DNA of 64,000 bases, from the IMG/VR virus record IMGVR_UViG_3300009320_000011, positions 11,152 to 75,151 of that record, one strand, 5' to 3'. The translations under genes and the position numbers were made by a program. Source of the DNA: a virus. Shown in pieces: positions 10,798 to 48,661 of the stretch (position 1 is its first letter; each line of letters begins with the position of its first letter). The notes under the pieces were generated by a model. That model saw only the letters and a list, made by a program, of their open reading frames with translations, was not told the origin of the DNA and did not search any database.

Positions 10798-11286
10798 ATG
10801 CCAGACTTGTTAGATCCACAAGAAATAATGTTCACAAGTTTTGAACCGAAAGTAGCTAATAGGTTCATTATGTACGTAGATGGAATACCAGCATATTTAA
10901 TTAACGCAGCAGGCACGCCGAATCCATCATTTGGTGAAATTACACTTGAACATATAAACGTAAAACGCAAATTAAAAGGAAAAGCTGTTTGGGCTGATAT
11001 CACGATATCATTATACGATCCAATTGTACCATCAGCTGCTCAAGCGGTAATGGAGTGGATTCGTCTATCTCATGAAGCAGTAACTGGCCGCGACGGCTAC
11101 TCAGATTTCTATAAAAAGGATTTGACATTTAATGCACTTGGACCAGTGGGCGATAAAGTTGGTCAGTGGACATTAAAAGGAGCTTGGATCAAAGATGCTA
11201 AATTCGGTGATTACGATTGGGCAACTGAAGATGCTATAAAAGTTGAGGTATCAATAGCATATGACTACGCAATATTAGATTACTGA
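10798..11286 (+). CDS. Tail tube protein (T4 gp19-like)
   Basis: FEPKVANRF, KGKAVWADITISLYDPIVPSAAQAVMEW, GRDGYSDFYKKD, WTLKGAW. Confidence 0.9.
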   Translation: MPDLLDPQEIMFTSFEPKVANRFIMYVDGIPAYLINAAGTPNPSFGEITLEHINVKRKLKGKAVWADITISLYDPIVPSAAQAVMEWIRLSHEAVTGRDGYSDFYKKDLTFNALGPVGDKVGQWTLKGAWIKDAKFGDYDWATEDAIKVEVSIAYDYAILDY

Positions 11287-11374: not shown

Positions 11375-12252
11375 ATGCAACAATTTCAATGTAAAATATG
11401 TAATAAAGAATTTGAATCATATGATTCTTTACGTCGTCATTCGGGAAATGTTCACAAAATTAAGTCTGAACAATTTAATGTCGACTTTTACCACAACGGA
11501 ATCCATCCGACTTGCAAATGTGGTTGTGGAGAAGAAACAAATTTCAATGGTCGCGGCTTTAAAGATTATAAGCGGGGACACATAGCCAGAATCCATAACA
11601 ACTGGGGACATAACCAGAAAGCAATAGATAATTCATCTAATACAAGACGCGAACAATTCAAATCTGGCGAACGAATCCAATGGAATAAAGGAAAATCATG
11701 GGACGAAACATTCAGTAAAGAAGTACAAGAAAAATTGTTGAATGATCTAAGAGATCCAGTTCGATGCAAAAAAATATCAAAATCACACACCGGCAAAAAA
11801 CATTCAGAAGAACATAATAAGAATAATGCCGCTTCAGTTAAAAAAGCTTGGGAAAATCCAGAGTTGAGAGAAAAACAGAGATTCAATAGGATCGAATATT
11901 TTACAAAACATAGAAAAATAGCAAAACAAAATTAGAAGAAGTGTTTTGTAAAATATTAGATGACATGGGAATAGATTATTATTTTCAATATGCAGTTGAT
12001 GGATATTTATATGATTTTAGGATTAAGAATCAAAATATATTGATCGAGGTTGATGGTGATTGGTACCATTGTAATCCAGAAAGAGGAATTATACCGGAAT
12101 ATGCTATTCAGAAACATACAGTGGAACATGATTTGGTAAAAGATAAAGCAGCTAAAGATAATGGTTATACCCTACTTCGTTTCTGGGAAAATGACATAAA
12201 CAACAATCGAAAAAATGTTATAAAAGAGCTAATTAAAAACATTTATTTTTGA
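11375..12252 (+). mobile_element. Homing endonuclease (C2H2 + CxCGC + NUMOD3-like + DUF559/Vsr-like domain), frameshifted near 11915
   Basis: CKCGCG, HTGKKHSEE and YDF..LIEVDGDWYH..LLRFWE motifs; the two ORFs join if one A is added to the A run (...RKNSKTKLEEVFCK...). Confidence 0.7.
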
Positions 12253-29099: not shown

Positions 29100-30296
29100 A
29101 TGGAAAATAAAAGAAGTGAACTCGCTGAGTTATTAGCGAACACGCTTAATAATAAATTTAAAGCAACCAATTATAAAACAGCCTATTTTCTTGAAGACGA
29201 TCCCGATGCACCCACAAATGTAAATGAGTGGGTGCCAACTGGGTCATCTATACTTGATATTAAAATATCAAATAAACCAAATGGAGGATTTCCCGTTGGT
29301 CGTATAATTGAGCTTCTAGGATTGGAGGCTAGCGGAAAATCTTTACTAGCCGCGCATGCACTAGCCAATACACAGAAACTGGGAGGCATAGCAGTTTATA
29401 TTGAAACTGAAAGTTCAGTAAGCAAAGAATTTCTAAGAGCAATCGGGGTTGATTTGAAGAATTTGGTATATGTACCACTTGATACAATTGAAGACGTATT
29501 TGAAGCGATTGAATCAATTATCGAAAAAATCAGAAAAACAAGTAAAGATGTTCTAGTAACTATAGTAGTTGACTCAGTTGCAGCAACAACTACAAAACTG
29601 GAAATGTCATCTGACTATGATAAAGCCGGATATAATACTGGTAAGTCTATTATCATTTCACAGGCCTTACGTAAAATAACCAATACAATCGCTCGTGAGC
29701 GAGTGTGTTTAATATTCACAAATCAGCTTAGAAAAAACATGAACTCAATGCCTGGAACCGATCCATATACCACAAGTGGTGGTATGGCTCTTGCGTTTCA
29801 TTCATCTGTTAGAATCCGATTGAGAAATATGGGCAAATTAAAAACCAAGGCAGGCGGTGTTGAAGAAGTAGTCGGTATGAAGACTCGAGTTGTTATTACA
29901 AAGAACCGAGTTGGTCCACCGTGGAAGGAATTGGTGTATGATATATATTTCAATTCTGGAATTGATAATTGTGGTGGTTGGTTGACCACAATGAAGGAAA
30001 GAAAACTTGTCAAACAAGCGGGAGCTTGGTACGAGTATACAGATAAAGATACTGGTGAAGTTCTAAAATTTCAATCTAAAACATTTGAATCAGACATATT
30101 ATCTGATGAAACTAGAAAAGAAACAATATATAATGATATATGTAATTCATTGATATCAAAATATAGAGCCAATGAAGATGGTGGTATTGATGATATCAAA
30201 GTTGATGAGAACATATATGATGAAGATATTGATGAACTAACAGACTCGGAAGATGATGCAAAACCATCAGCAAAAATAAAACCAAATGTCAAATAA
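29100..30296 (+). CDS. uvsX: RecA/UvsX recombinase
   Basis: Walker A GLEASGKS, IVVDSVAA, IFTNQLR, TSGG.AL.FHSSVR, KNRVGPP. Confidence 0.95.
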   Translation: MENKRSELAELLANTLNNKFKATNYKTAYFLEDDPDAPTNVNEWVPTGSSILDIKISNKPNGGFPVGRIIELLGLEASGKSLLAAHALANTQKLGGIAVYIETESSVSKEFLRAIGVDLKNLVYVPLDTIEDVFEAIESIIEKIRKTSKDVLVTIVVDSVAATTTKLEMSSDYDKAGYNTGKSIIISQALRKITNTIARERVCLIFTNQLRKNMNSMPGTDPYTTSGGMALAFHSSVRIRLRNMGKLKTKAGGVEEVVGMKTRVVITKNRVGPPWKELVYDIYFNSGIDNCGGWLTTMKERKLVKQAGAWYEYTDKDTGEVLKFQSKTFESDILSDETRKETIYNDICNSLISKYRANEDGGIDDIKVDENIYDEDIDELTDSEDDAKPSAKIKPNVK

Positions 30297-31311
30297 TATA
30301 ATAAATAGGAGTAAAGCAGAGTCCATCCACCAAGACATTAATTCAAAGGTGTTGATAGTGGATGGACTTTAACTCAACTTATATATTCGTTGTTTTGCCG
30401 CTATACCCGCAATGAATGGCGAAGGATATCATGTCGGTGGTATAACAGGATTTTTGAAATCAATTGCGTATGCCATCCGACAATTTAATCCAACAAGATG
30501 TATAATTGTGTTTGATGGAAAAAATGGATCGGTTAGACGCAGGAAATTATACCCAGATTATAAACATAAAAGTACTATTTCATCAAAGTATAATCGGATG
30601 TATAAAAATGATGCTGACGAAGTGGCATCGATGAAAAAACAATTTTCTAGATTACTTGATTATTTAAGTACTTTACCTATATCTATAATATCAATAGATG
30701 GTATTGAAGCTGATGATACAATAGCATATGCATCAACTGAAATACTAAAAGATAGTGATGTAGTTATATTATCAACTGATAGGGATTTCTTACAATTGGT
30801 CGACAAACGAATCAATGTGTGGAGTCCTATTAAAAAGATACTATATAATGTTGATACAATTAAAGAGGAATTTGGTATAAGTCCTAATAATTTTTTATTG
30901 TATAAAATGTTCGTCGGAGATAATTCAGATAATATTCCGGGAATCAAGGGAGTTGGAATTAAAACAATTGAAAAAAGATTTTCATTTCTAAAAGAGGACA
31001 AAGAATATAGCATTAATGATATTATTAATGAATGTGTATTAAATCAAAATACTAAAATCAAAATATATGATTCCGTAATAAACCAAAAAGATCAACTGTT
31101 GTTAAATAAACAACTGATGGATTTGAAAAATTTAGACATATCAGGAAACTCAAAATTATTAATAGGATATAAAATAGAAGAGAAAATAGAAAGCTTAAAT
31201 AAAATAGCATTCGTTGGAATGTTATTAAAGGATGATATTATTAACTTGGTTGGTGATGTACATTTCTGGCTAAAAAACTCATTCGATAAATTGAACTACT
31301 ATGCAAAGTGA
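30286..31311 (+). CDS. 5'-3' exonuclease/flap endonuclease (T4 RNase H-like), interrupted by in-frame TAA at 30370-30372
   Basis: VLIVDGL*LNLYIR, VFDG, EADD, STDRDFLQL, GDNSDNIPGIKGVG; the start at 30286 is in frame with the track ORF at 30412. Confidence 0.85.
30309..30375 (+). promoter_or_regulatory. Hairpin plus codon-STOP-codon element in the exonuclease gene
   Basis: AGAGTCCATCCAC (30318-30330) pairs with GTGGATGGACTTT (30358-30370); CTT TAA CTC. Confidence 0.75.
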
Positions 31312-32695
31312 TAACTTAAAAGAACACGACGATAACTTTCAAGCTAAATTAATAGCTTCTTTTATCACTGATAAGTTTTTCTTTCAACAAGTAATTGATG
31401 TTATTGATCCAAAGCATTTTACTACAGAGATGGACCAGTTTGTCGTTAAATTAATGTTTGATCACTTTTTGGATTATAAACAATTACCGACAGGAACTGT
31501 AATAAAAACTGAAATTGAAAAGATTAAAGATGATGTATTGAGATCATCAATATATGATAGATTAAAAAAAGTTCAATCGGTTATTGACTCGACTGATTTA
31601 CAATATGTCAAGGATGAATATTTGAAATTCTGTCTAACCAAAGAAATCGAATCAGCACTAATAAAATCAGCTGACTTATTACAAGTTGGTGAATTAGATG
31701 GAATAAAAACACTAGTCAGTAATGCATTTAATTCAATATCGGATCGCGATTTTGGTCATAATTACTTAAAAGGATTTGAAGATAGATACGAGAAAGATAT
31801 CCGAAATCCAATACCAACTCCATGGCCGGTTATTAATAAAATAATGGATGGCGGATTATCTGGAGGAGAACTTGGGTGTGTAATCTCACCGCCCGGAAGA
31901 GGAAAAACATGGAGTTTGTCGGCAATTGGTTCTCACGCTCTTAAGATTGGAAAAAATGTATTACATTATACACTTGAAATTAATGAGCATTATGTGGCAA
32001 AACGATATGATTCAATATACAGCGGCGTACCATTTTCAGAACTAAGGTTCAAAAAAGAAGAGGTATTTGATAGTATTAAAAGTTATGATGAATCAACTCT
32101 AATAATAAAAAAATATGGTGGCAAAAAAGCATCAATACAAACTCTTACTGCTCATATTGAAAAATGTATCAATAATGGAATAAAGCCAGATTTGATTGTT
32201 GTAGATTATGCTGATTTACTAAAACCTACAATATATCATAATAAAGAATCACATGCGATATTGCAAGACATATATGTCGACTTATGCGTATTGGCCGAAG
32301 AATATAATATACCGTGCTGGACTGCATCACAAACCGGAAGACATGCTATAAACTTAGATATTATTGAAGATGATTCAATTGCCGGATCATATGGCAAAAT
32401 AATGGAATCATATTTTGTTATGACAGTATCAAGAAATGTAACAGATAAAGAAGGCGGAACAGCAAAAATCTTTGTGGCAAAGAATAGATTTGGTCCAGAT
32501 GGATTAACTTTTCCTTCGAAATTTAATGCAAGCAACGGCCGGATATTGATATATGAAAAAGATAGCATTGAAGGAAAAAAAGTAACGAATGATCTAGACA
32601 ATGATATACCAACAAGAGTTGAATTACGTGATAGGTTCAATGATTTGATGGGCAAAGACAAAAAATTAGATGATAAAAAAATAGATTTAGGATAA
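31301..32695 (+). CDS. Replicative DnaB-like helicase (T4 gp41-like)
   Basis: SPPGRGKT, HYTLE, VVDYADLL, WTASQ, KNRFGPDG. Confidence 0.9.
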   Translation: MQSDNLKEHDDNFQAKLIASFITDKFFFQQVIDVIDPKHFTTEMDQFVVKLMFDHFLDYKQLPTGTVIKTEIEKIKDDVLRSSIYDRLKKVQSVIDSTDLQYVKDEYLKFCLTKEIESALIKSADLLQVGELDGIKTLVSNAFNSISDRDFGHNYLKGFEDRYEKDIRNPIPTPWPVINKIMDGGLSGGELGCVISPPGRGKTWSLSAIGSHALKIGKNVLHYTLEINEHYVAKRYDSIYSGVPFSELRFKKEEVFDSIKSYDESTLIIKKYGGKKASIQTLTAHIEKCINNGIKPDLIVVDYADLLKPTIYHNKESHAILQDIYVDLCVLAEEYNIPCWTASQTGRHAINLDIIEDDSIAGSYGKIMESYFVMTVSRNVTDKEGGTAKIFVAKNRFGPDGLTFPSKFNASNGRILIYEKDSIEGKKVTNDLDNDIPTRVELRDRFNDLMGKDKKLDDKKIDLG

Positions 32696-32716
32696 TATTT
32701 AGGAGGATATATATAC

Positions 32717-33919
32717 ATGCTATACAATTATAATGATGTTTTAGAAAAAACAAAACAGTATTTTGATGGTGATGAGTTAGCAGCTATAGCTTGGATCAAT
32801 AAATACGCTTTAAAGGACTCAGATAAAAATATATATGAGCTAACTCCAGATGATATGCACAATAGACTGGCTGATGAAATATCTAGAGTGGAAAATACAT
32901 ATGATAATCCAATAACCAGACAACAAATATATGAATTATTAAAAGACTTTCAATATGTTATTCCACAAGGCGGACCAATGGCCGGCATAGGAAATAACTA
33001 TCAGATTACATCCTTATCAAATTGTTTTGTCGTTGGCAGTGATCCACCGGCAGATTCATATGGTGGTATATTAAAAACTGACGAACAACAAGTTCAACTG
33101 ATGAAACGTAGGGGAGGAGTTGGACATGATTTGTCGCACTTAAGACCATCAAATTCATCTGTACAAAATTCAGCATTAACGTCAACTGGTGTTACTTCAT
33201 TTATGGAGAGATATTCTAATTCAACTAGGGAAGTAGCACAAGACGGTCGTCGTGGTGCTTTAATGCTAACACTATCGATAAAACACCCCGATGTACTTGA
33301 ATTTATTAAGATTAAATCTAATTTAGATAAAGTTACTGGAGCAAATGTGTCTATAAAATTGACTGATGAATTTTTGAAATCGGTTATTGCTGATAAAAAA
33401 TTTACACATACATTTCCAATTAATGCAACTGGCGATGATATAAAACAGACAAAAGAAGTTAATGCTATTGACTTATGGAATCAAATTGTATTTAATGCTT
33501 GGAATACTGCTGAACCTGGAATATTATTTTGGGATAAAATTATATCTGAAAGTCCAGCTGATTGTTATAAATCAGATGGATTTGAAACAGTGAGCACGAA
33601 TCCATGTGTTTCGGGCGATACAATAATAACAACCAATATTGGCAAATTGACAGTTAAAGAAATTTTTGAAAGATTTAATAATGGTGAAAAATTTATTATT
33701 GATTCGTTTAATGTTAAAGAAAACAAACTAGAAAAAGATGAAATAGAGGATATATTATTGACAAAAAGAAATGCGAATACTATAGAATTAATTTTAGAAG
33801 ATAATTCAACACTTGTTTTAACACCAGACCATAAAGTGTTTACTAAAAATAGAGGATGGGTCAATGCGTGCCAGCTTTGTGAAGAAGATATTTTATTAAA
33901 GATTGATGAAAAAAGTTGA
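32717..33919 (+). CDS. nrdJ: Class II ribonucleotide reductase fragment 1 plus split-intein N-half (from 33605)
   Basis: SLSNCFV, RRGGVGHDLS, RRGALM, AEPGILFWD, STNP/CVSGDT..LTPDHKV. Confidence 0.9.
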   Translation: MLYNYNDVLEKTKQYFDGDELAAIAWINKYALKDSDKNIYELTPDDMHNRLADEISRVENTYDNPITRQQIYELLKDFQYVIPQGGPMAGIGNNYQITSLSNCFVVGSDPPADSYGGILKTDEQQVQLMKRRGGVGHDLSHLRPSNSSVQNSALTSTGVTSFMERYSNSTREVAQDGRRGALMLTLSIKHPDVLEFIKIKSNLDKVTGANVSIKLTDEFLKSVIADKKFTHTFPINATGDDIKQTKEVNAIDLWNQIVFNAWNTAEPGILFWDKIISESPADCYKSDGFETVSTNPCVSGDTIITTNIGKLTVKEIFERFNNGEKFIIDSFNVKENKLEKDEIEDILLTKRNANTIELILEDNSTLVLTPDHKVFTKNRGWVNACQLCEEDILLKIDEKS

Positions 33920-33969
33920 AAAATTTATTTTCGTGATATATATAGTATATTAAAGATGGGCACAGATTT

Positions 33970-34737
33970 ATGGAAAATGAAAATTTAGATGAGTTTAGAA
34001 ATTTTATATCTGATATATATGAGCAAAAATTTTTTGATGTTAAAGGTAAGGCGCGATTTCATAATATTGAAAAAATTAAAAATGACAAAAGATATGAAAA
34101 TTCTAAAAAGATTATTGAAAAATATTATTATGAAAAAGGATTTGGCATAAAATATTTTATAAAATATTTCAAATTGAATGTTTCTTACCCAGTTCTTAGA
34201 AAGTGTTTCTTAAATTTTTTTGAAATAAAATTGAGGAGTTATGAAGAAATAACAGATAATTTACGCAAACTAAGAAGGGAAAAAATAGAATATGAGAGAG
34301 AAAACAATATGGGATGGTTTTCTGAAGAATCAAGAAGAAAGACAAAAATAAGAAATTCTATACAGAGGGGGATCCAAGGTTATTTTTTTAATGAGAGCAG
34401 AAATAAATTCGTTTGGTTAAGAAGTTCTTGGGAATATATTTTTGCAAAATGGCTTAATAAAAATAAATTTGATTGGGACGTTGAAGTAGAAATGTATAAT
34501 GTGGGAGGCAAGAAATATAGGCCAGATTTCTTTATATTTGAAAATAGCAAGATAACAAAAATTATAGAAGTTAAAGGCTATTGGAAAAATAATAATTGGA
34601 AATTTGAAGTATTAGGTGAACAATTAAAAGATAAAAATATAGAATTTATTTTGATAGAAAATATTTTACCCTATTGTTCACTTAAATTCAAAGATGAGGT
34701 GGAAACTTGGAAACTAGAAAGAAAGGCAGACAAATGA
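33970..34737 (+). mobile_element. Free-standing PD-(D/E)XK homing endonuclease between intein halves
   Basis: LRSSWE, YRPDFF..IIEVKGYW. Confidence 0.75.
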
Positions 34738-35780
34738 AAGTTATAGAAACAAAAATAAAAAAAATCAATATTCATAAGAATGAAACTGTTTATGATTTGA
34801 AAGTTAAAAAAAATAATAACTTTTTTGCTAATGATTTATTGGTCCACAATTGTTCAGAAATTCCGTTGTGTATTTTTGATTCTTGTCGTCTATTAGCAAT
34901 AAATTTATATAGTTATGTTTCAAATCCATTTACAAAAAAAGCAAAATTTGATTTTGATTTGTTTAAACAACATATTGGATTTGTTACACGTATTATGGAC
35001 GATATTATTGATTTGGAGCTTGAAAAAATTAAAGTGATTATTACAAAAATAGATAATGATCCAGAACTACCCGAGATTAAATTGGTTGAAAAACGCCTAT
35101 GGGAAAATATTTATCACAAAACATCAGCTGGTCGCAGAACAGGAATTGGAATCACAGCTGAAGGAGACATGTTAGCCGCATTGGGTATTCAATATGCTAG
35201 TAAAAAGGCCATTGGATTCTCTACACGCGTGCATAAATTATTGGCAATAGAATCATATCGTGAATCAATTAATCTATCAAAAGAGAGAGGTAGTTTTTCA
35301 ATATGGAATTTAGATAAAGAAAAAGATAATCCATTTATTAAAAGAATAATGGAAGCTGAACCTGATTTATTGGATGATTACAAAAAATATGGTAGACGAA
35401 ATATATCAATGTTAACTGTCGCGCCGACTGGGTGTTTAGTTGATTCAACTAAAATTAAAACAGATCACGGATATATAACATTGGCAGAATTATTTTTGGT
35501 TAATGGATATGATCTGGAGAGACTTAGGGGACTACGAGATATGTGGATAGAACCAACCCAGGATATATATGTGTATAATATATTTGGTGAGAAGAATAGA
35601 ATCACGAAATTATATTGGGCGGGTGAATATAACACGAAAAGAATTAGATTGAGCGATGATAATTTGTTGGAGTCAACCATGAATCATAAATTTTTAGTTA
35701 AACTAAATAATAAAGAAGCAATATGGAAGAAGGCAGTTGATTTACGGGTTGGTGATATTATTATTAAGAAAATTGAATAA
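34734..35780 (+). CDS. nrdJ: NrdJ fragment 2: intein C-half (34734-34850), extein, second intein N-half (from 35433)
   Basis: VYDLKV..NNFFANDLLVHN/CSEIPL ... RRTGIG ... TVAPTG/CLVDST..STMNHKF. Confidence 0.9.
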   Translation: MKVIETKIKKINIHKNETVYDLKVKKNNNFFANDLLVHNCSEIPLCIFDSCRLLAINLYSYVSNPFTKKAKFDFDLFKQHIGFVTRIMDDIIDLELEKIKVIITKIDNDPELPEIKLVEKRLWENIYHKTSAGRRTGIGITAEGDMLAALGIQYASKKAIGFSTRVHKLLAIESYRESINLSKERGSFSIWNLDKEKDNPFIKRIMEAEPDLLDDYKKYGRRNISMLTVAPTGCLVDSTKIKTDHGYITLAELFLVNGYDLERLRGLRDMWIEPTQDIYVYNIFGEKNRITKLYWAGEYNTKRIRLSDDNLLESTMNHKFLVKLNNKEAIWKKAVDLRVGDIIIKKIE

Positions 35781-35795
35781 ATATTTGATATTTTT

Positions 35796-35843
35796 ACTAT
35801 TGCTCTATACTTATACTAAAGGAACATAAATAGGAGCAATAGT
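35796..35843 (+). promoter_or_regulatory. RBS/start-sequestering hairpin with a late-promoter-like motif in the loop
   Basis: ACTATTGCTC pairs with GAGCAATAGT; TATACTTATA at 35806-35815. Confidence 0.7.
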
Positions 35844-36966
35844 GAGAAATATAAAAAAAATATCGTATTTGGAAAAATATAACAAACTAGTTGAAGAACA
35901 TGGACCAATAGAGGGAATGAATCAATATTACCGATTTATTAGGGGGGTGTCATTAGAAAAATATATATTGAAATATGGTGAAATAGATGGTAAGAAAAAA
36001 TACGACGAATGGAAAGATATACAAAAGAATTCGGGGGTTTCTTTGGATAAAATGATTAAAAAATATGGTGAAATAGATGGTAAGAAAAAATATGAGAATT
36101 GGAAACAAGATACTAGACAAGATTTAAACGCGTTTATAAAAAGATATGGCCGCATTAGTGGTGAAGAAAAATATAATGAATTTAAAAGAAAATCATTGGC
36201 CGCATTATCTAAAGTGGATCAATCAAAAAAGAAGTCAATTAGAAAATTAAATTATTGGATGGATGTTACTAACGGTGATGTTCAACTTGCAAAAAGAAAA
36301 TTATCCGAATATCAAAATACAGCAAGTTTAGATAAATTTATAAATAAATATGGGGATGTAGATGGTAAAAGACGGTATTTGGAAACAAATGCAAAAAGAG
36401 GAACGACACTACGAACAATGATCGAAAAATATGGTGAAGTAGAAGGTAAAGAAAAATACGAGATTTGGAGGAATACCAATAAGCACTTGAAAGAGGATTG
36501 GATAAAAAAATATGGTGAAGTAGACGGTAATAGGAGATATCTAGAATTAACAAAAAAGAAAATAGAAAGAACCAAAAGATATTCTGATATTGGTTTGGAA
36601 TTCTGTGAAGAAATATATAAGAAACTTTGTCATAAATATAGCAATTTTTATTACGGGGAATCAGAATATATGTTTTTTATATTTGAAGATGATGTAAGGA
36701 TAATAGTCCCAGATATGTATATAAAAGATATAAATTTGGTTATCGAATTTTATGGTGATTTCTGGCATAAAAATCCATTAATATATGATATTTCGCAAGA
36801 ATTTGTAAAAGAAACATGGGAACGAGACGAAAAACGGATCTCCATACTAGAAAAGAAAATAAATTCCAATGTAATAATAGTGTGGGAATATGATTATCGC
36901 AAAGATCCGGATGGTGTAATAAATAAAATAGTGGATGAAATAATTATGAATTATGGAAAAGATTAA
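35842..36966 (+). mobile_element. Free-standing Vsr-like homing endonuclease with KYGE.DGK..Y repeats
   Basis: At least six KYGxxxG repeats; VPDMY...IEFYGDFWH..IVWE. Confidence 0.75.
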
Positions 36967-38104
36967 TATAGAGAATATACAATATGAAGAATTAACTGTG
37001 ATTAGTGTAGATGATAATGTTGCTGAAACAATGGATATTGAAGTTGAGAACGATCATTATTATGAACTAGATGGTGGGATATATTCGCACAATACTGTAT
37101 CATTATTAACACAAACCACATCGGGCATTGAACCGTTATTTATGCCATATTATAAAAGAAATAAAAAAATTAATTCAAATGATGTTGATGCAAAGGTACA
37201 TCATACGGATGCTTCGGGTGATAGTTGGGAACAATATAATGTATTTCATCCAAAACTAAAACACTGGATGGAATTGATGGGGCATACTAATATTGAGGAT
37301 AAAATAGATGATGAGTTAAATAATATATTTGAAAAATCTCCATACTTTGGATCAACTGCAAATGACATTAATTGGTTGGATAAAGTTAAAATGCAAGGTG
37401 AAATACAAAAGTGGGTCGACCATTCAATATCAGTAACAGTTAATTTACCAAATACAGCAACAGAAGAATTAATATCAGATATATTTAAGCAGTCTTGGAA
37501 ATCAGGCTGCAAGGGCATTACAGTATATCGCGATGGTTGTCGTGCCGGTGTTTTGATATCAAATAACGATTTAGATAGAAATGGGACTAAAATCCAACAT
37601 AACTCAGCACCAAAACGTCCAAAAATACTTGATTGTGATATACACCAAATAACAGCTCTTGGTAAAAAATGGGTTGTATTGGTTGGTTTATTAGAAGGAG
37701 ATCCATATGAAGTTTTTGCATTCAAACAAGATAAAATAACTATATCACCAAAATTTACAAAAGGATTATTAACACGACATAAGAGCGGCCATTATAAACT
37801 AGAAATACCAGACACAATAGAATTCAATGATATTACAAATTTGTTTGAACGTGATGAGCAAGAATCTCTCACTAGAATTTTATCATGGGGATTACGACAC
37901 GGCGGCGGCGTTAAATATGCAATGGAACAACTGAATAAATCGGGTGAATCAATAGCATCATTTAGTAAAGCTATTTCACGAACATTGAAAAAATATATTA
38001 ATGACGGTGATAAATCTAGTGTGCTATGTCCTGAGTGTGGCGGTGAAATGATATATCAAGAGGGATGCATACGCTGCAAATCTTGTTCGTGGAGTAAATG
38101 TTAA
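36953..38104 (+). CDS. nrdJ: NrdJ fragment 3: intein C-half (36953-37093) plus C-terminal extein with a Zn ribbon
   Basis: TMDIEV..HYY..GIYSHN/TVSLL..SGIEP, VDHSISVTVN, KGITVYRDG, CPECG..EGC..C..C.WSKC. Confidence 0.9.
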   Translation: MEKINIENIQYEELTVISVDDNVAETMDIEVENDHYYELDGGIYSHNTVSLLTQTTSGIEPLFMPYYKRNKKINSNDVDAKVHHTDASGDSWEQYNVFHPKLKHWMELMGHTNIEDKIDDELNNIFEKSPYFGSTANDINWLDKVKMQGEIQKWVDHSISVTVNLPNTATEELISDIFKQSWKSGCKGITVYRDGCRAGVLISNNDLDRNGTKIQHNSAPKRPKILDCDIHQITALGKKWVVLVGLLEGDPYEVFAFKQDKITISPKFTKGLLTRHKSGHYKLEIPDTIEFNDITNLFERDEQESLTRILSWGLRHGGGVKYAMEQLNKSGESIASFSKAISRTLKKYINDGDKSSVLCPECGGEMIYQEGCIRCKSCSWSKC

Positions 38105-38108
38105 AATT

Positions 38109-38441
38109 ATGAAAAAGGTATTACTTGAAGAATTGAATTGGCCAAATGATTTCGATAGCGATTGGTTAAATGAGATAATAGAATCTGTTAATGAAACATC
38201 TGATTGGAATGGAAAAGCTAAAATGGTAATTACACAAAAAGATGTTGATGATTATAATGGATTATTTGATAATATGCTGGGATGGGAATTCCAAATTCAA
38301 CAAAATAAACATGAAGACCATAAGACCGATGGCCAAATGGTTGAATATCAAATTAGCATAACTGATAATAAAAAACAAAAAACACAATTTTATACTGAAA
38401 TGTGTTTGATGGTTGGTTGGAACATTAAGTTATTAAAATAG
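38109..38441 (+). CDS. Hypothetical protein
   Basis: Intact ORF in operon orientation. Confidence 0.55.
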   Translation: MKKVLLEELNWPNDFDSDWLNEIIESVNETSDWNGKAKMVITQKDVDDYNGLFDNMLGWEFQIQQNKHEDHKTDGQMVEYQISITDNKKQKTQFYTEMCLMVGWNIKLLK

Positions 38442-38469
38442 TATTGAAATGAAAAAAAATAAATAACGA

Positions 38470-41211
38470 ATGTACCAAAATCTTTTTTTCGATCGAGAAA
38501 GTTATGTAATGCACGTCTTCGACGATGCTAAAGGATACTATAAATCCAAATACAATTCGTATGCCTATGTATTAGATGCTGGTGGTATGTATAATACACT
38601 GGATGGCAAAACTGTTAAGAGGATACCGGGATATAAGGTTAAAGAATATGATAAAAGTTTATTATATGAATCAGATGTAAAACCAGAAATAAGGTTTTTG
38701 ATCGACAAGTACGGACTATCAGATGAACCATCCAAAAATCATATTACACTATTTTTTGATATCGAAGTCGAATCAGCTGATGGTTTCCCAGACCAAGTAT
38801 TAGCTGAGCAAGAGGTAACTGCAATATCATGTTGGATAAAAGAGATAGATTCATCTATACTACTTCTTCTTGATAAAAGCGACATTATAAAAGATGTAAA
38901 TAAGAAAAATGTTAAAATTATATCATTCAAAGATGAAGTATCTTTATTGGATGAATTTATTAATATATTACACAAAATCAAACCAACGATACTAACTGGT
39001 TGGAATATAAATAACTTTGATATACCATATCTATATAATAGGTATACCAATATATTTGGTGAAGATGTAGCAAAACAATTAAGTCCAATTAACATAGTTA
39101 AAGAGGATCATTATAACGACGGTGAATATAAAATAGCTGGTGTAAATTGTTTAGACTATTTATTATTATATAAGAAATTCGAATCAAACCAGAAACAAGC
39201 ATATTCACTTGATTTTATTGGTGAATTGGAGATAGGACTTGGCAAGGTAAAATATGACAAATCATTGGATGATCTATACAATACAGACATCGAAGGATTT
39301 ATTGAGTATTGTTTTCGTGATGTTGAAATTGTAAAACAACTTGATGAAAAATTAAACCATATTGAACTGACTAAGATGGTATGTCATAAAGGACACGTAC
39401 CATACGAAGATATATTTATGTCGTCTAGATATTTAGAAGGAGCGATATTAACGTATTTGAAAAATAATGAAATAGTATCACCCAATAAAAAACCAGAAAT
39501 CAAACTTGTATTATCTCGAGATCATAACTTAGATGAATCAAAATTATATGTTAGAAGCATACCAAAAGAAACACCATTAAGTGGTATGTTAGGCATAAAG
39601 AAATCAAAATCCTCATTTGTATATGTCGACTATAAAGAATATAAGGGGAACTATTTCATATTAAAGGAACCACTAAAAGAATATATAGATAAAACTTATA
39701 AGGTATCGTTCGAGTTTACAGGAGCTAGAGTTAAACCACCAAAACCAGGTAGGTTTAAGTGGATGTTTGATTTAGACTTAAAATCAATGTATCCGTTTTC
39801 AATTATTACATTGAATATATCTCCAGAAACAAAAAAAGGCAAAGTATTTGAATTTGACCCATATGAGTTTTATAATAATAAAGACGCAAATATAAGAGTC
39901 ATATTTGACTCAGATGAATTATTGATTACGTATTCTGAATTAAGGAAATTGTTGATAAAATATAATTGTTCTATATCATCCAATGGAATAATTTATTCAC
40001 TTGAAAAACGTGGTTTGATACCAAATATACTTGAATTGTGGTCTTTTGAGCGCGATGATGTAAAGGAAAAACGCGATGAACATAAAGAAGGATCAAAGAA
40101 ATATCAGTATTTCGATAGACTCCAGGAAAGGCAAAAGGTTTTGCTTAACTCAATTTATGGGTGTCTTGGTCTGCAATCATTTCGTTGGTATGATTTAGAT
40201 AATGCGGAAGCAACAACGTCGAGTGGAAGGACATTAATAACATATTCAGAAAAAGTTGCAAATTTATTTTATAATAAAGAGTTAAATATCGATGTAAGTG
40301 CATCAAAAAATAATCAAGTAGATTATTGTGCTTACATCGATACGTAGATGGATTCATTATTCTTTTCAACTTTACCAATTATTGAAAAAAGATATCCAAC
40401 TGAGGATTATGAAAATGATTCTTTTATGATTAATAAAACACTTGAAATCACTAGAGAAATACAAAACTTTATTAATGATTCGTATAAAAATTATTCAAAT
40501 GGATTTCATTGTGTTAAAAATCATAGCTACAAAATTAAGCAAGAACTTGTAGCAAAATCCGGATTTTGGTTAGATGTAAAGAAACGATATGCATTACTAA
40601 TAGTTGATAAAGAGGGCGTGAGACTTGAAAAACCAAAATTAGATGTAAAGGGATTGGATACTGTACGTAGTGATTTTCCAAATAGTATGCGTGAGTTTAT
40701 GAAGGAAACATTAATGCATATATTAGAGTTTAAGTCAAAAGAGTTTTTGGATAAACATATTGAGCAATTCAAAGAAAAAATAAATTCAATTGAAGTAAAA
40801 GATATCGCTCGACCATCTTCAGTAAATGGTATTGGTAAGTATTCTGGAAGAAAAACACCAGGAGGATTGACTGAAATTAAAAAAGGAGCTCAATCACATA
40901 TAAAAGGATGTATATATTATAATGATTTGATTAATATATTTGATCAATCAAAAGATTACGAGCACATCAGGAATAAAGATAAAATTAAGAGTGTTTACTT
41001 GAAAGACAATCCATATCAATTTGAATCTTTATCTTATCGGGGATATGACGATCCGCCAGAAATTATTGAATTTATTGAAAAATATATAGACCGAAATAAA
41101 ATCTTTGAATTATTGCTGGTAAATAAATTAAATTCATTCTATAAAGCTTTGGGCTGGGGCGAGATTAATGCGTTAATAAATAAAAACATAAATAAATTTT
41201 TTGATTTTTAG
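38470..41211 (+). CDS. Family B DNA polymerase (T4 gp43-like), interrupted by TAG ATG inside motif C
   Basis: FFDIEV, TGWNI..FDIPY, DLKSMYP, KVLLNSIYG, YIDT*MDS, KKRYA, VKG; both track ORFs are in the same frame. Confidence 0.9.
40287..40353 (+). promoter_or_regulatory. Hairpin plus codon-STOP-codon element in PolB
   Basis: TATCGATGTAAGTGCA (40287-40302) pairs with TGTGCTTACATCGATA (40327-40342); inner ATAATC/GATTAT stem; ACG TAG ATG. Confidence 0.75.
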
Positions 41212-47115: not shown

Positions 47116-47364
47116 ATGATTGACAAAAATAAAGAACATTTTTTCTGGAATGAGCGGTACCGCCCCCAAAATTTAGATGATTATGTGGGCAATGAAGCAT
47201 TAATACAGAGCGTCAAAATATGGATAGAAAGTGGCGAAATCCCAAATCTATTATTATATGGGAAAGCTGGGACGGGCAAATGTTTGGATTATTCTGAGTA
47301 TATTGATATTGAGATGGAAGTATCTGATGATGAATATAAGATACTAAAACAATATGAAATTTGA
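47116..47364 (+). CDS. Clamp loader ATPase (gp44/RFC-like) N-extein plus 27-aa intein N-fragment
   Basis: WNERYRP, LLLYGKAGTGK/CLDYSEYI... Confidence 0.85.
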   Translation: MIDKNKEHFFWNERYRPQNLDDYVGNEALIQSVKIWIESGEIPNLLLYGKAGTGKCLDYSEYIDIEMEVSDDEYKILKQYEI

Positions 47365-47502
47365 AATATTTTCTAGAAAACATATACTAATTTAATATTC
47401 TTATGCCATTCGTGTCATGCTAGAACCGCAAACTCGCATGATGATGGTTGGATTGATTATTATGTAAATAAAAATAAACAGTTTTATGAAAAAGAAATTT
47501 AG
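47354..47502 (+). pseudogene. Internally deleted HNH endonuclease remnant between the intein halves
   Basis: ATG 47354 gives MKFEIFSRKH; the frame from 47389 reads NLIFLCHSCHARTA...*. Confidence 0.65.
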
Positions 47503-48661
47503 GTTACCAGTTGGAGAACTTTTTAAGTTTTTTAATTTATTGGATATTGATGATAATGATACTGTTGATATTAATAGATATTTAGCTATTAAAAATCAAT
47601 ATAATAAATATAAACGTATTAATTCTTTAATAAAAAAACAGGGTCAAGTAAATATATATAAATTTGAAGATGATATAAATATTAAATGTGATGAAAAACA
47701 TTTAGTTAGATGTAATAATAGATTTATATGTATAAAAGATGCCGATACAGTTGATACAATATATGGAAATAAAAAAAAGATGGGGGCAATATCAGGAACT
47801 ATTAAAGATGTTTATGATTTTTCAATAGATAGTCCACACGAATATATAACATCTAATGGTGTTATTTGCCACAATACATCTTTAGCAAAATTATTGGTTA
47901 AGAATATAGATTGTGATTTCATGTATGTTAATGCCAGTGATAAAGGTAATATTGATTTTCTTAGAAACGAAATCATACCATTCGCAACATCAATTGGATT
48001 TAAGGATCGTAAAATTATAATTCTTGATGAAGCGGATTATTTATCATTTGGTGGAATGGGTGGTTCTCAACAAGCACTTAGAAATACAATGGAAGCATCA
48101 TCTAGAAATACAAGATTTATTTTAACTTGTAATTATGTTGAAAAAATAATTGATCCAATCAAAAGTCGTTGCGATGTATACCATATAACACCACCATCCA
48201 GGAAAGAGGTCGCTGTATTATTAACTAAAATTCTTAATAAAGAGCAAGTGGAATATGATGTATCTGATTTAGCAGTAGTTGTTAATTCAACATATCCGGA
48301 TATGAGGAGAGCTATTAATTTGATTCAACGACAATCCATTAATGGTAAACTTAAGATTAGCAAACAATCAATTATTGAATCAAATTATATGCTAAAAATA
48401 GCAGAAGAACTAAAATCCAATAAAGAACCAAAAGAAAAATTCAAATCAATACGTAAAATAATATCAGATAGTAAAGTAAGAGATTTCGAAGATTTATATA
48501 GATTTCTATTTGATAATGTAGATGACTATGCAAAAGGAAATATAGCATCTGTTATATTAGAAATAGCCGAGACTCAGTTTCAGTCGACTTTCGTGGTGGA
48601 TAAAGAAATTGCGGTAACAAGCTTATTGGTGAAATTAATTAGGACCATAAATGAAAAATAA
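47486..48661 (+). CDS. 130-aa intein C-fragment plus clamp loader ATPase C-extein
   Basis: CDEKHL, VYDFSI..HEY..NGVICHN/TSLAK; NASD, ILDEAD, SRC, PDMR. Confidence 0.9.
   Translation: MKKKFRLPVGELFKFFNLLDIDDNDTVDINRYLAIKNQYNKYKRINSLIKKQGQVNIYKFEDDINIKCDEKHLVRCNNRFICIKDADTVDTIYGNKKKMGAISGTIKDVYDFSIDSPHEYITSNGVICHNTSLAKLLVKNIDCDFMYVNASDKGNIDFLRNEIIPFATSIGFKDRKIIILDEADYLSFGGMGGSQQALRNTMEASSRNTRFILTCNYVEKIIDPIKSRCDVYHITPPSRKEVAVLLTKILNKEQVEYDVSDLAVVVNSTYPDMRRAINLIQRQSINGKLKISKQSIIESNYMLKIAEELKSNKEPKEKFKSIRKIISDSKVRDFEDLYRFLFDNVDDYAKGNIASVILEIAETQFQSTFVVDKEIAVTSLLVKLIRTINEK

Follow-up and report, generated by a model that had tools for sequence, protein, structure and literature searches.

The DNA analyzed here is a 64,000-nucleotide stretch (the window) of a marine T4-like phage, spanning positions 11,152 to 75,151 of the IMG/VR virus record IMGVR_UViG_3300009320_000011, a record of 75,151 bases whose completeness was estimated at ~38% by CheckV. 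The window has a G+C content of ~30%, holds nearly all of its genes on the + strand and carries a T4-like replication module at 28-49 kb. Two genes of this module, encoding a 5′-3′ exonuclease/FEN and a B-family DNA polymerase (PolB), are each interrupted inside a catalytic-aspartate motif by a short gap that opens with a stop codon and directly follows a strong hairpin (Table 1). An earlier sequence-only reading of the window had proposed that each gene contains exactly six extra in-frame nucleotides at this place, and both the sequence itself and the ungapped relatives agree with it. The codons flanking each stop, referred to below as the take-off and landing codons, were likewise confirmed to lie one base apart in both genes (CTT/CTC in the exonuclease gene, ACG/ATG in the PolB gene).

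The first open reading frame (ORF) of the exonuclease gene, MSNNIINRSKAESIHQDINSKVLIVDGL, begins with an ATG that overlaps the stop codon of UvsX, an N-terminal layout shared by the relatives, and ends in AAG GTG TTG ATA GTG GAT GGA CTT (VLIVDGL) immediately ahead of TAA. The second ORF, which opens with NLYIRCF, matches PF02739 (6.5e-28) and PF01367 (3.2e-10). The part following the stop matches the Pfam profile 5_3_exonuc_N from profile position 9, and the gene read through covers positions 1-164 with one TAA inside. A protein-similarity search supplied 80 exonuclease relatives, of which 78 have D-G-L/T-N with no insert, and the gene of the window is thus longer by exactly six nucleotides; the remaining two relatives read GAC GGC CTT TAG CTT AAT at the same codon. 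The hairpin has a minimum free energy of -27.5 kcal/mol (z = -5.6), none of 200 shuffled sequences folding as well, and its stem reaches 13 bp when A-U and G-U pairs are counted. Perfect stems of at least 10 bp with a loop of at most 60 nucleotides number 15 in the whole 75-kb record.

At the PolB site, the sequence reads TAC ATC GAT ACG TAG ATG GAT TCA. The PolB of Microcystis phage Mel-JY01 is contiguous at YIDTDS, and here too the extra sequence therefore amounts to exactly six nucleotides. The PolB hairpin folds at -24.1 kcal/mol (z = -6.1; 0/200 shuffles fold as well) and extends to 16 bp with A-U and G-U pairs, so that the 13- and 16-bp stems of the sequence-only reading were recovered as perfect cores of 11 and 12 bp lengthened by such pairs. 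Its 5′ arm encodes an extra NIDVS segment without counterpart in ungapped PolBs. In both genes, the two halves match one Pfam domain or one homologue uninterrupted once the six nucleotides are removed. The closest relative of the C-terminal part of PolB (P0002; here and below, P numbers label relative proteins and L numbers relative loci or alleles) is 81% identical to it. ACG accounts for 8% of the threonine codons of the record, and CTT and CTC for 13% and 3% of its leucine codons; given their rarity, the codons flanking the two stops are unusual choices.

Table 1. Coordinates of the two interrupted genes and of other features of the window
Feature	Position in window	Strand	Description
Exonuclease ORF1	30286..30369	+	28 codons; first catalytic Asp (VDG); take-off codon CTT (30367-30369) last
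Exonuclease 6-nt gap	30370..30375	+	Stop TAA (30370-30372) and landing codon CTC (30373-30375)
Exonuclease ORF2	30376..31311	+	Resumes at AAC in the same frame; rest of the 5′-3′ exonuclease/FEN domains
Exonuclease hairpin	30318..30370	+	Perfect core 30320-30330/30358-30368 (11 bp), inner stem-loop; V-D-G-L codons form the 3′ arm
PolB ORF1	38470..40344	+	625 codons; exonuclease domain and polymerase domain to motif C (YIDT); take-off codon ACG (40342-40344)
PolB 6-nt gap	40345..40350	+	Stop TAG (40345-40347) and landing codon ATG (40348-40350)
PolB ORF2	40351..41211	+	Resumes at GAT (DSLFF...); second catalytic Asp of motif C and thumb
PolB hairpin	40287..40342	+	Perfect core 40287-40298/40331-40342 (12 bp), extended to 16 bp; inner 6-bp stem
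gp32-like single-stranded DNA-binding protein (SSB)	replication module, 28-49 kb	+ (as nearly all genes)	Part of the T4-like module
RecA/UvsX gene	29100-30296	+	Directly abuts the exonuclease gene
Ribonucleotide reductase large subunit	32717-38104	+	Three ORFs, starting at 32717, 34707 and 36953
ORF between reductase pieces	33970-34737		Nuclease-like
ORF between reductase pieces	35842-36966		No assignment; GTG start
Hairpin at the second of these ORFs	35796-35843	+	10 bp, ACTATTGCTC/GAGCAATAGT
Clamp-loader large subunit	47116-48661	+	Two ORFs, 47116-47364 and 47486-48661
Hairpin in second clamp-loader ORF	48316-48387		13 bp, perfect
Homing-endonuclease-like gene	11375-12252	+	Zinc-finger/NUMOD-like N part 11375-11935, TAG at 11933; VSR-like nuclease domain, about 11929-12252, follows in the -1 frame
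Hairpin in this gene	11895-11910/11942-11957		16 bp, longest perfect hairpin of the record

Parts of the window, in small shares, were found in Logan contigs of three marine metagenome DNA runs from one study, no RNA run being among those listed. A 215-nt contig from one of these runs, which may be the source sample, corresponds to 40288-40500 without any difference and thereby retains the six nucleotides of the PolB site; no indel variant was listed at either site in this comparison. These data bear on the idea that the genes are corrected at the RNA or DNA level, the six nucleotides being excised from the mRNA under guidance of the hairpin, as the sequence-only reading had offered as an option, or missing from part of the replicating DNA. 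Apart from the position of the hairpin, which abuts the insert, nothing was found in favor of excision, the recurring pattern of landing codons would have no role in it, and we know of no bacterial or phage mechanism that removes 5-8 nt from an mRNA. We consider such correction barely credible. Other origins of the inserts were considered and rejected: an intein or intron (only six extra nucleotides are present, and where the window has intein matches, they belong to the pieces of the ribonucleotide reductase), a simple tandem duplication (the insert does not repeat its flanking sequence) and quasi-palindrome template switching (judged by eye, the sequence following the 3′ arm is no mirror image of that preceding the 5′ arm).

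Interruptions of the same kind recur in relatives. Pattern scans of IMG/VR yielded 54 distinct exonuclease alleles with a stop-led gap after D-G-L, once spurious matches had been discarded (DGL-stop-FNFFIS..., which belongs to another gene; L133; L155-L162; and most of 73 metagenome matches). Every exonuclease and PolB gap allele begins with a stop, as the scan patterns for both genes required. The gap measures 6 nt in 45 of the exonuclease alleles, 7 nt in seven (among them TAGCGTC, TAACGTC, TGACAAC and TAGAAAA) and 5 nt in two (TAGTG); a further 7-nt gap, TGAGCCA (L271/L273), and one 8-nt allele (L274) fall outside the stricter filter of this tally. The stop is TAG in 30 alleles, TGA in 17 and TAA in seven, and close relatives may differ only in its identity, as do L105 (TAA) and L253 (TGA). 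Gap alleles are spread across the family tree, at times as sisters of uninserted genes; the gap and uninserted sets were sampled differently, and no counts of gain or loss were drawn from them. The exonuclease gene is intact in Flavobacterium phage immuto, in Mel-JY01 and in the metagenomic phage assembly LR756508, and no phage isolate carrying the gap was found among the cultured relatives checked. This recurrence indicates that the inserts are neither errors nor private lesions.

The variety of these gaps bears directly on stop codon readthrough, whereby a tRNA would read TAA or TAG and two extra residues would be retained in each enzyme (DGL-X-L-N and DT-X-M-DS). The gaps of the window are in frame, so that a full-length chain could be made this way, and the alleles most often use TAG, which is frequently a weak stop. 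However, all three stops are used at the exonuclease site and are interchanged between close relatives, gaps of 5, 7 and 8 nt at that same site cannot be read through, and the nucleotide-level match of landing to take-off codons would be left unexplained. Two added residues inside DTD, a motif that is to our knowledge invariant among B-family polymerases, should moreover inactivate PolB, and none of the ungapped PolBs examined has an insert there. No tRNA gene was found in the 75-kb record, whose ordinary ORFs end with TAA (43), TGA (16) or TAG (11). Readthrough is for these reasons extremely unlikely, and whole-genome stop reassignment, already set aside by the sequence-only reading, and a suppressor tRNA were rejected on the same last two grounds.

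Seven further PolB alleles, or eight counting that of the window, carry a gap between T and D of DTDS. Take-off codon and gap are ACG and TAAATG in L157 (identical in L154 and L180), ACG and TAAATA in L222, ACC and TGACA in L288, ACT and TAACT in L291 (also L293 and L299), ACG and TAACC in L296, ACG and TAGTGCG in L297/L298, and ACG and TGAAGCG in L305. L305 is an unsplit PolB, with 568 open codons followed by the 7-nt gap and by 281 codons in the +1 frame, and in four alleles a mini-ORF of 22-28 codons (MKIK.I...VDV...YIDT), with the N-terminus MKIK.I in common, precedes an out-of-frame C-terminal part of 279-282 codons. In the out-of-frame alleles, neither readthrough nor reinitiation can join YIDT to DS, because the gap shifts the frame and offers no start codon.

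These alleles also speak to a two-subunit PolB, in which translation would stop at TAG and the adjacent ATG would restart a 287-residue C-terminal subunit, the two pieces assembling non-covalently. TAG ATG does form a stop-start junction, TAGATG occurs at an ordinary gene border of the window (41209), natural PolB C-fragments of ~300 residues exist, and this phage already keeps genes in pieces (split inteins in the ribonucleotide reductase and the clamp loader). Against it, the cut falls between the two catalytic aspartates of DTDS, while the known C-fragments start ~14 residues earlier and leave the motif whole, and no Shine-Dalgarno sequence precedes the ATG of the window. The restart codon is not conserved either, as L222 has ATA at this position, and five other alleles have gaps of 5 or 7 nt with a frame change and no start codon; in the split alleles, the piece bearing YIDT would be a peptide of only 22-28 residues. 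Nor does restart apply to the exonuclease gene, where CTC is the next codon and no conserved start follows it. A two-subunit polymerase is therefore very unlikely.

L157 and L222 are two-gene PolBs with a new start and a short homologous segment ahead of the gap; their upstream pieces (L157:1205-3079, - strand; upstream end of L222, - strand) end in a related, conserved extension of ~35-47 residues, R-I/V-x-V/I-x-L/F-EDGT-T/S..., similar to the block with which an intein N-half begins. The two PolB pieces of L157 are separated by three small ORFs of 62, 86 and 67 residues. In metagenomes, breaks near motif C take other forms as well: the C-fragments P0013 and P0016 open with the C-half of an intein (...SN|SVFYSA), corresponding to a split intein at DTD|S, whereas the ~300-residue C-fragments P0017, P0020-22 and P0025-28 start ~14 residues before DTDS. 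In L002 (LR756508.1 258500-268500, from a 484-kb uncultured phage), the N- and C-terminal parts of PolB lie ~5 kb apart, which suggests that a large insertion sits close to this region.

A stem-loop precedes the gap in all 28 TAA/TAG exonuclease gap alleles sampled (-18 to -33 kcal/mol); it has the (V/I/F)-x-D-G-(L) codons as its 3′ arm and finishes within 0-4 nt of the last base of the take-off codon. For the odd-length alleles, and for those TGA alleles whose upstream sequence is complete, the range is -21 to -37 kcal/mol. In an alignment of 26 exonuclease alleles, covariation links the 5′ arm to the wobble positions of the Asp and Gly codons. RNAalifold predicted no consensus structure on the MAFFT alignment owing to gaps, and base pairs were therefore counted for a stem specified by hand: pair 31-81 is GC in 16 alleles and AU in eight, pair 28-84 occurs as five pair types, and the covariation score of the stem is 0.304 versus 0.179 in shuffles, none of 500 shuffles reaching it. 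In PolB, the folding energies of the eight gap alleles range from -20 to -26 kcal/mol; the 5′ arm comes from an additional x-D-V-x segment, absent from ungapped PolBs, and a compensatory change separates the stem of the window (GTAAG/CTTAC) from that of L157 (GTAGA/TCTAC). The corresponding values for ungapped PolBs are -1.9 (Mel-JY01), -9.2 (HTVC008M) and -17.4 kcal/mol (L003, with a stem ending 7 nt before the motif), and the uninterrupted exonuclease sites of Mel-JY01 and LR756508 fold weakly, at -8 to -10 kcal/mol.

Selection is visible on both sides of the exonuclease gap. Upstream, the catalytic codons are conserved; downstream, dN/dS is ~0.2 in the body of the gene in a clade without nearby endonuclease (L092, L105, L107, L108 and L149), in which the gap persists across dS ~1, a combination that argues against dead genes. 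It likewise argues against the inserts being inactivating scars, left by immunity mutations to homing endonucleases or by hairpin-induced insertions, in a phage where other gene copies or host enzymes would substitute. In favor of scars, mutations can concentrate at hairpins, some relatives have the gap at a recombination junction and a record only ~38% complete leaves room for other copies. Yet all alleles keep both gene parts otherwise intact, the stop is retained while its identity changes, the record contains a single FEN match and a single PolB match, and the same lesion would have had to inactivate the replicative polymerase in eight lineages. Scarring of this kind is in our view highly improbable.

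Another exonuclease clade shows the cassette to be mobile. Here, a homing endonuclease of ~200 residues (HNH+NUMOD3) sits between uvsX and the exonuclease gene, and the 5′ gene piece up to the gap is near-identical (dS <=0.2) while the bodies are saturated (dS >1.7). The boundary is sharp: between L100 and L066 it falls at the gap itself, with 22-35 mismatches per 50 nt upstream of the site and 0-3 once a few tens of bases downstream are reached. At this locus, the endonuclease of L085 and L087 is another one, combining NUMOD3 with a VSR-like nuclease. The suggestion of the sequence-only reading that the inserts disrupt sites targeted by homing endonucleases fits these HNH-endonuclease cassettes. 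An adjacent endonuclease together with a sharp break of identity at the gap is a feature of the relatives and not of the window, where no endonuclease gene was found beside either site, UvsX abutting the exonuclease gene and none flanking PolB; by analogy, the cassettes of the window would be endonuclease-less derivatives.

Three loci (L042, L043 and L056) have an HNH endonuclease upstream of the exonuclease gene and no gap. Their target motifs, MIFDGLNAF, LIVDGLNMF and MVLDGLNTF, differ from the clade consensus MVFDGLNTFIR, which would be compatible with immunity conferred by substitution and not by a gap. The window itself contains a free-standing homing-endonuclease-like gene (Table 1), broken between its N-terminal part and a nuclease domain weakly similar to the endonucleases of L085 and L087 (28-33% identity). 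The longest perfect hairpin of the record has this break in its loop, and the gene is either decaying or another recoding site.

Taken together, we conclude that both sites of the window are probably miniature translational-bypass cassettes, or "stop-hops", likely derived from homing-endonuclease elements. The claim of the sequence-only reading that a 6-nt hop would be needed to make both enzymes now draws support from 54 exonuclease and eight PolB alleles, out-of-frame gaps that no process but bypassing could repair, three different stops, near-cognate landings, co-varying hairpins and purifying selection. For the role in replication timing that this reading had also raised, the analysis yielded no support. 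Under the proposed mechanism, the ribosome would decode the take-off codon (CUU-Leu in the exonuclease mRNA, ACG-Thr in that of PolB), bringing the stop codon into the A site; instead of terminating, a fraction of the ribosomes would keep their peptidyl-tRNA, which would unpair, slide by 6 nt and re-pair with the near-cognate landing triplet (CUC or AUG), decoding resuming at the next codon. The expected products would carry VDGLNLYIR in the exonuclease and YIDTDS in PolB. With the 3′ arm of the hairpin inside the ribosome at take-off, the basal stem would be unable to form, and its zipping as the mRNA exits could give the movement directionality and probably help the hop, as has been proposed for gene 60 of phage T4, where pairing of the mRNA on exit from the ribosome is put forward as a forward driver (bioRxiv 10.1101/2024.12.09.627546). 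As to origin, the cassettes most likely descend from mobile elements of homing endonucleases, made up of a replacement 5′ gene piece, a hairpin and the gap; the gap probably arose to protect the endonuclease's own target site by breaking it, and the endonuclease genes beside both sites would since have been lost in this phage.

Take-off and landing codons share their first two bases in 43 of the 45 six-nucleotide exonuclease alleles, a value reached by none of 10000 shuffles, although the two 6-nt scans forced Y-T-N on either side of the stop and thereby inflated the apparent match. A scan leaving the landing codon free added one true 6-nt allele without a match, L280 (CTT TGA GTA), the only one without a Leu/Phe-type landing codon. 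TTG-TAG-TTA is found in one exonuclease clade and CTC-TAA-CTT in its sister clade. In PolB, the landing triplets ACT, ACC, ACA, GCG, ATG and ATA mostly have two or three bases in common with the take-off codon ACN.

Several observations nevertheless weigh against the stop-hop interpretation, beyond the bias of the two scans. Several of the 7-nt exonuclease gaps land poorly (CCA, AAC and AAA against CTC and CTA, some with a one-base match), so that re-pairing cannot be the whole rule, and re-pairing from ACG to AUG in the PolB of the window would require a G-U pair at the middle position. Nor is the exonuclease hairpin specific to the gap, since its place folds at or below -15 kcal/mol in 23 of 37 uninserted relatives, and it is therefore at most a putative stimulator of the hop. 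Uninserted loci such as L050, L033, L048 and L068 keep a 10-12-bp hairpin with the F-D-G-L codons as 3′ arm, and the exonuclease hairpin thus either predates the gap or is left over from gaps since lost. The origin of the cassettes of the window is argued by analogy with relatives, since no homing endonuclease adjoins either site, and for every allele the hop is deduced from sequence. Finally, stop-hops in E. coli constructs have been described as low-level (10.1101/2024.12.09.627546); an essential polymerase would need far more hopping than this, unless the phage tolerates low amounts of the enzyme.

Among known systems, T4 gene 60 comes closest (bioRxiv 10.1101/2022.08.31.505936; PMC5009743; PMC5462505), sharing the stop directly after the take-off codon and a matched or near-matched landing triplet. 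The gene 60 gap belongs to the element of the endonuclease MobA, which is organized as a C-terminal extension, the endonuclease, an N-terminal extension with a homologous region and the gap, and whose endonuclease has been lost in some lineages (10.1101/2022.08.31.505936). Similarly, in the relatives of the window the gap is the 3′ end of a cassette that combines an endonuclease gene with a new start and a replacement gene piece, the upstream piece of the split PolB alleles bears a C-terminal extension, and some lineages have lost the endonuclease and kept the gap. The sites described here differ in the size of the gap (6 nt, and 5-8 nt in relatives, versus 50 nt), which at 6 nt is too short for a take-off stem-loop or an internal Shine-Dalgarno sequence, in their target genes (FEN and PolB instead of a topoisomerase), in the exonuclease nascent peptide, which has just 28 residues and is not known to hold a KKYK-type signal, and in being known from sequence. 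In the window, the landing triplets are near-cognate to the take-off codons and not identical with them.

In-frame stop-hops had been shown in synthetic constructs only, with no natural occurrences known as of 2016 (PMC5009743), and our full-text literature search, from whose reach most subscription journals lay outside, found no published description of a natural one. The sites share with those E. coli constructs the X-stop-X′ layout with a near-cognate X′, CUU take-off with CUN landing being the commonest natural form. Unlike the constructs, which are engineered, low-level and devoid of stimulatory signals, they are natural, conserved, located in catalytic motifs and always preceded by a strong hairpin. 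The terminase of Streptomyces phage Hau3 and the mitochondrial "byp" inserts of Magnusiomyces capitatus (PMC5009743) are also comparable, as short non-coding inserts that are skipped and that tolerate two-of-three landing matches; they concern other organisms, genes and signals, the A site being occupied by UUA or an unused codon, and are described without a conserved hairpin upstream.

Split B-family polymerases are known from archaea and, as split gp43, from some T4-like phages. Like these and intein-interrupted polymerases, the PolB of the window is broken at or beside motif C, a known hotspot of selfish elements; it differs from them in having neither intein sequence nor an independent C-terminal gene, and in a break that falls between T and D of DTDS and changes the frame in relatives.

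By a slight balance of the evidence, we favor a broader view, in which micro-bypass cassettes would form a large class borne by selfish elements, an upstream hairpin driving the ribosome over a stop-led gap of 5-8 nt, and in which the replicative polymerase and the primer-removing nuclease of this phage would be made only by hops. These would then be the first natural stop-hops and a second, much wider family of bypassing after T4 gene 60. Efficient programmed bypassing has so far rested mainly on T4 gene 60 and on yeast mitochondrial inserts; if this view holds, the alleles would provide dozens of natural variants of a minimal bypass signal (hairpin, take-off, stop and landing) for mechanistic work, explain why gene callers cut the FEN and PolB genes of uncultured phages into pieces, and add a further case of homing endonucleases shielding their own target with an insert that is repaired by translation. 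For annotation, a gene broken within a catalytic motif by a stop-led gap of a few bases (5-8 nt in the present cases) that directly follows a hairpin should not automatically be classed as a pseudogene.

Particular to the window are the presence of both cassettes in one genome, the in-frame 6-nt length of both gaps, the lack of an adjoining endonuclease and an unsplit PolB; the same genome also has split-intein genes and at least one free-standing endonuclease gene. Besides the SSB, UvsX, the exonuclease and PolB, its replication module comprises a DnaB-like helicase, a ribonucleotide reductase in three pieces, methyltransferases and a clamp loader in pieces. The nearest cultured relatives are Mel-JY01 and immuto, with protein identities of 37-43% and the gene order SSB-RecA-exonuclease-helicase in common with the window. 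In blastn comparisons with cultured phages, the exonuclease region had no match and PolB a single T4-like match of 90 nt.

Other genes of the module are interrupted as well (Table 1). In the ribonucleotide reductase large subunit, intein-splicing-domain matches were found at the end of the first ORF and in two stretches of the second, one of them at its start, and two unrelated ORFs separate the three pieces. Within the second clamp-loader ORF lies a perfect 13-bp hairpin. At the unassigned ORF between the reductase pieces, a 10-bp hairpin takes up the Shine-Dalgarno sequence (GGAG) in its pairing, together with the first bases of the GTG start; it looks like a translational control hairpin, a layout familiar from late and early transcripts of T4.

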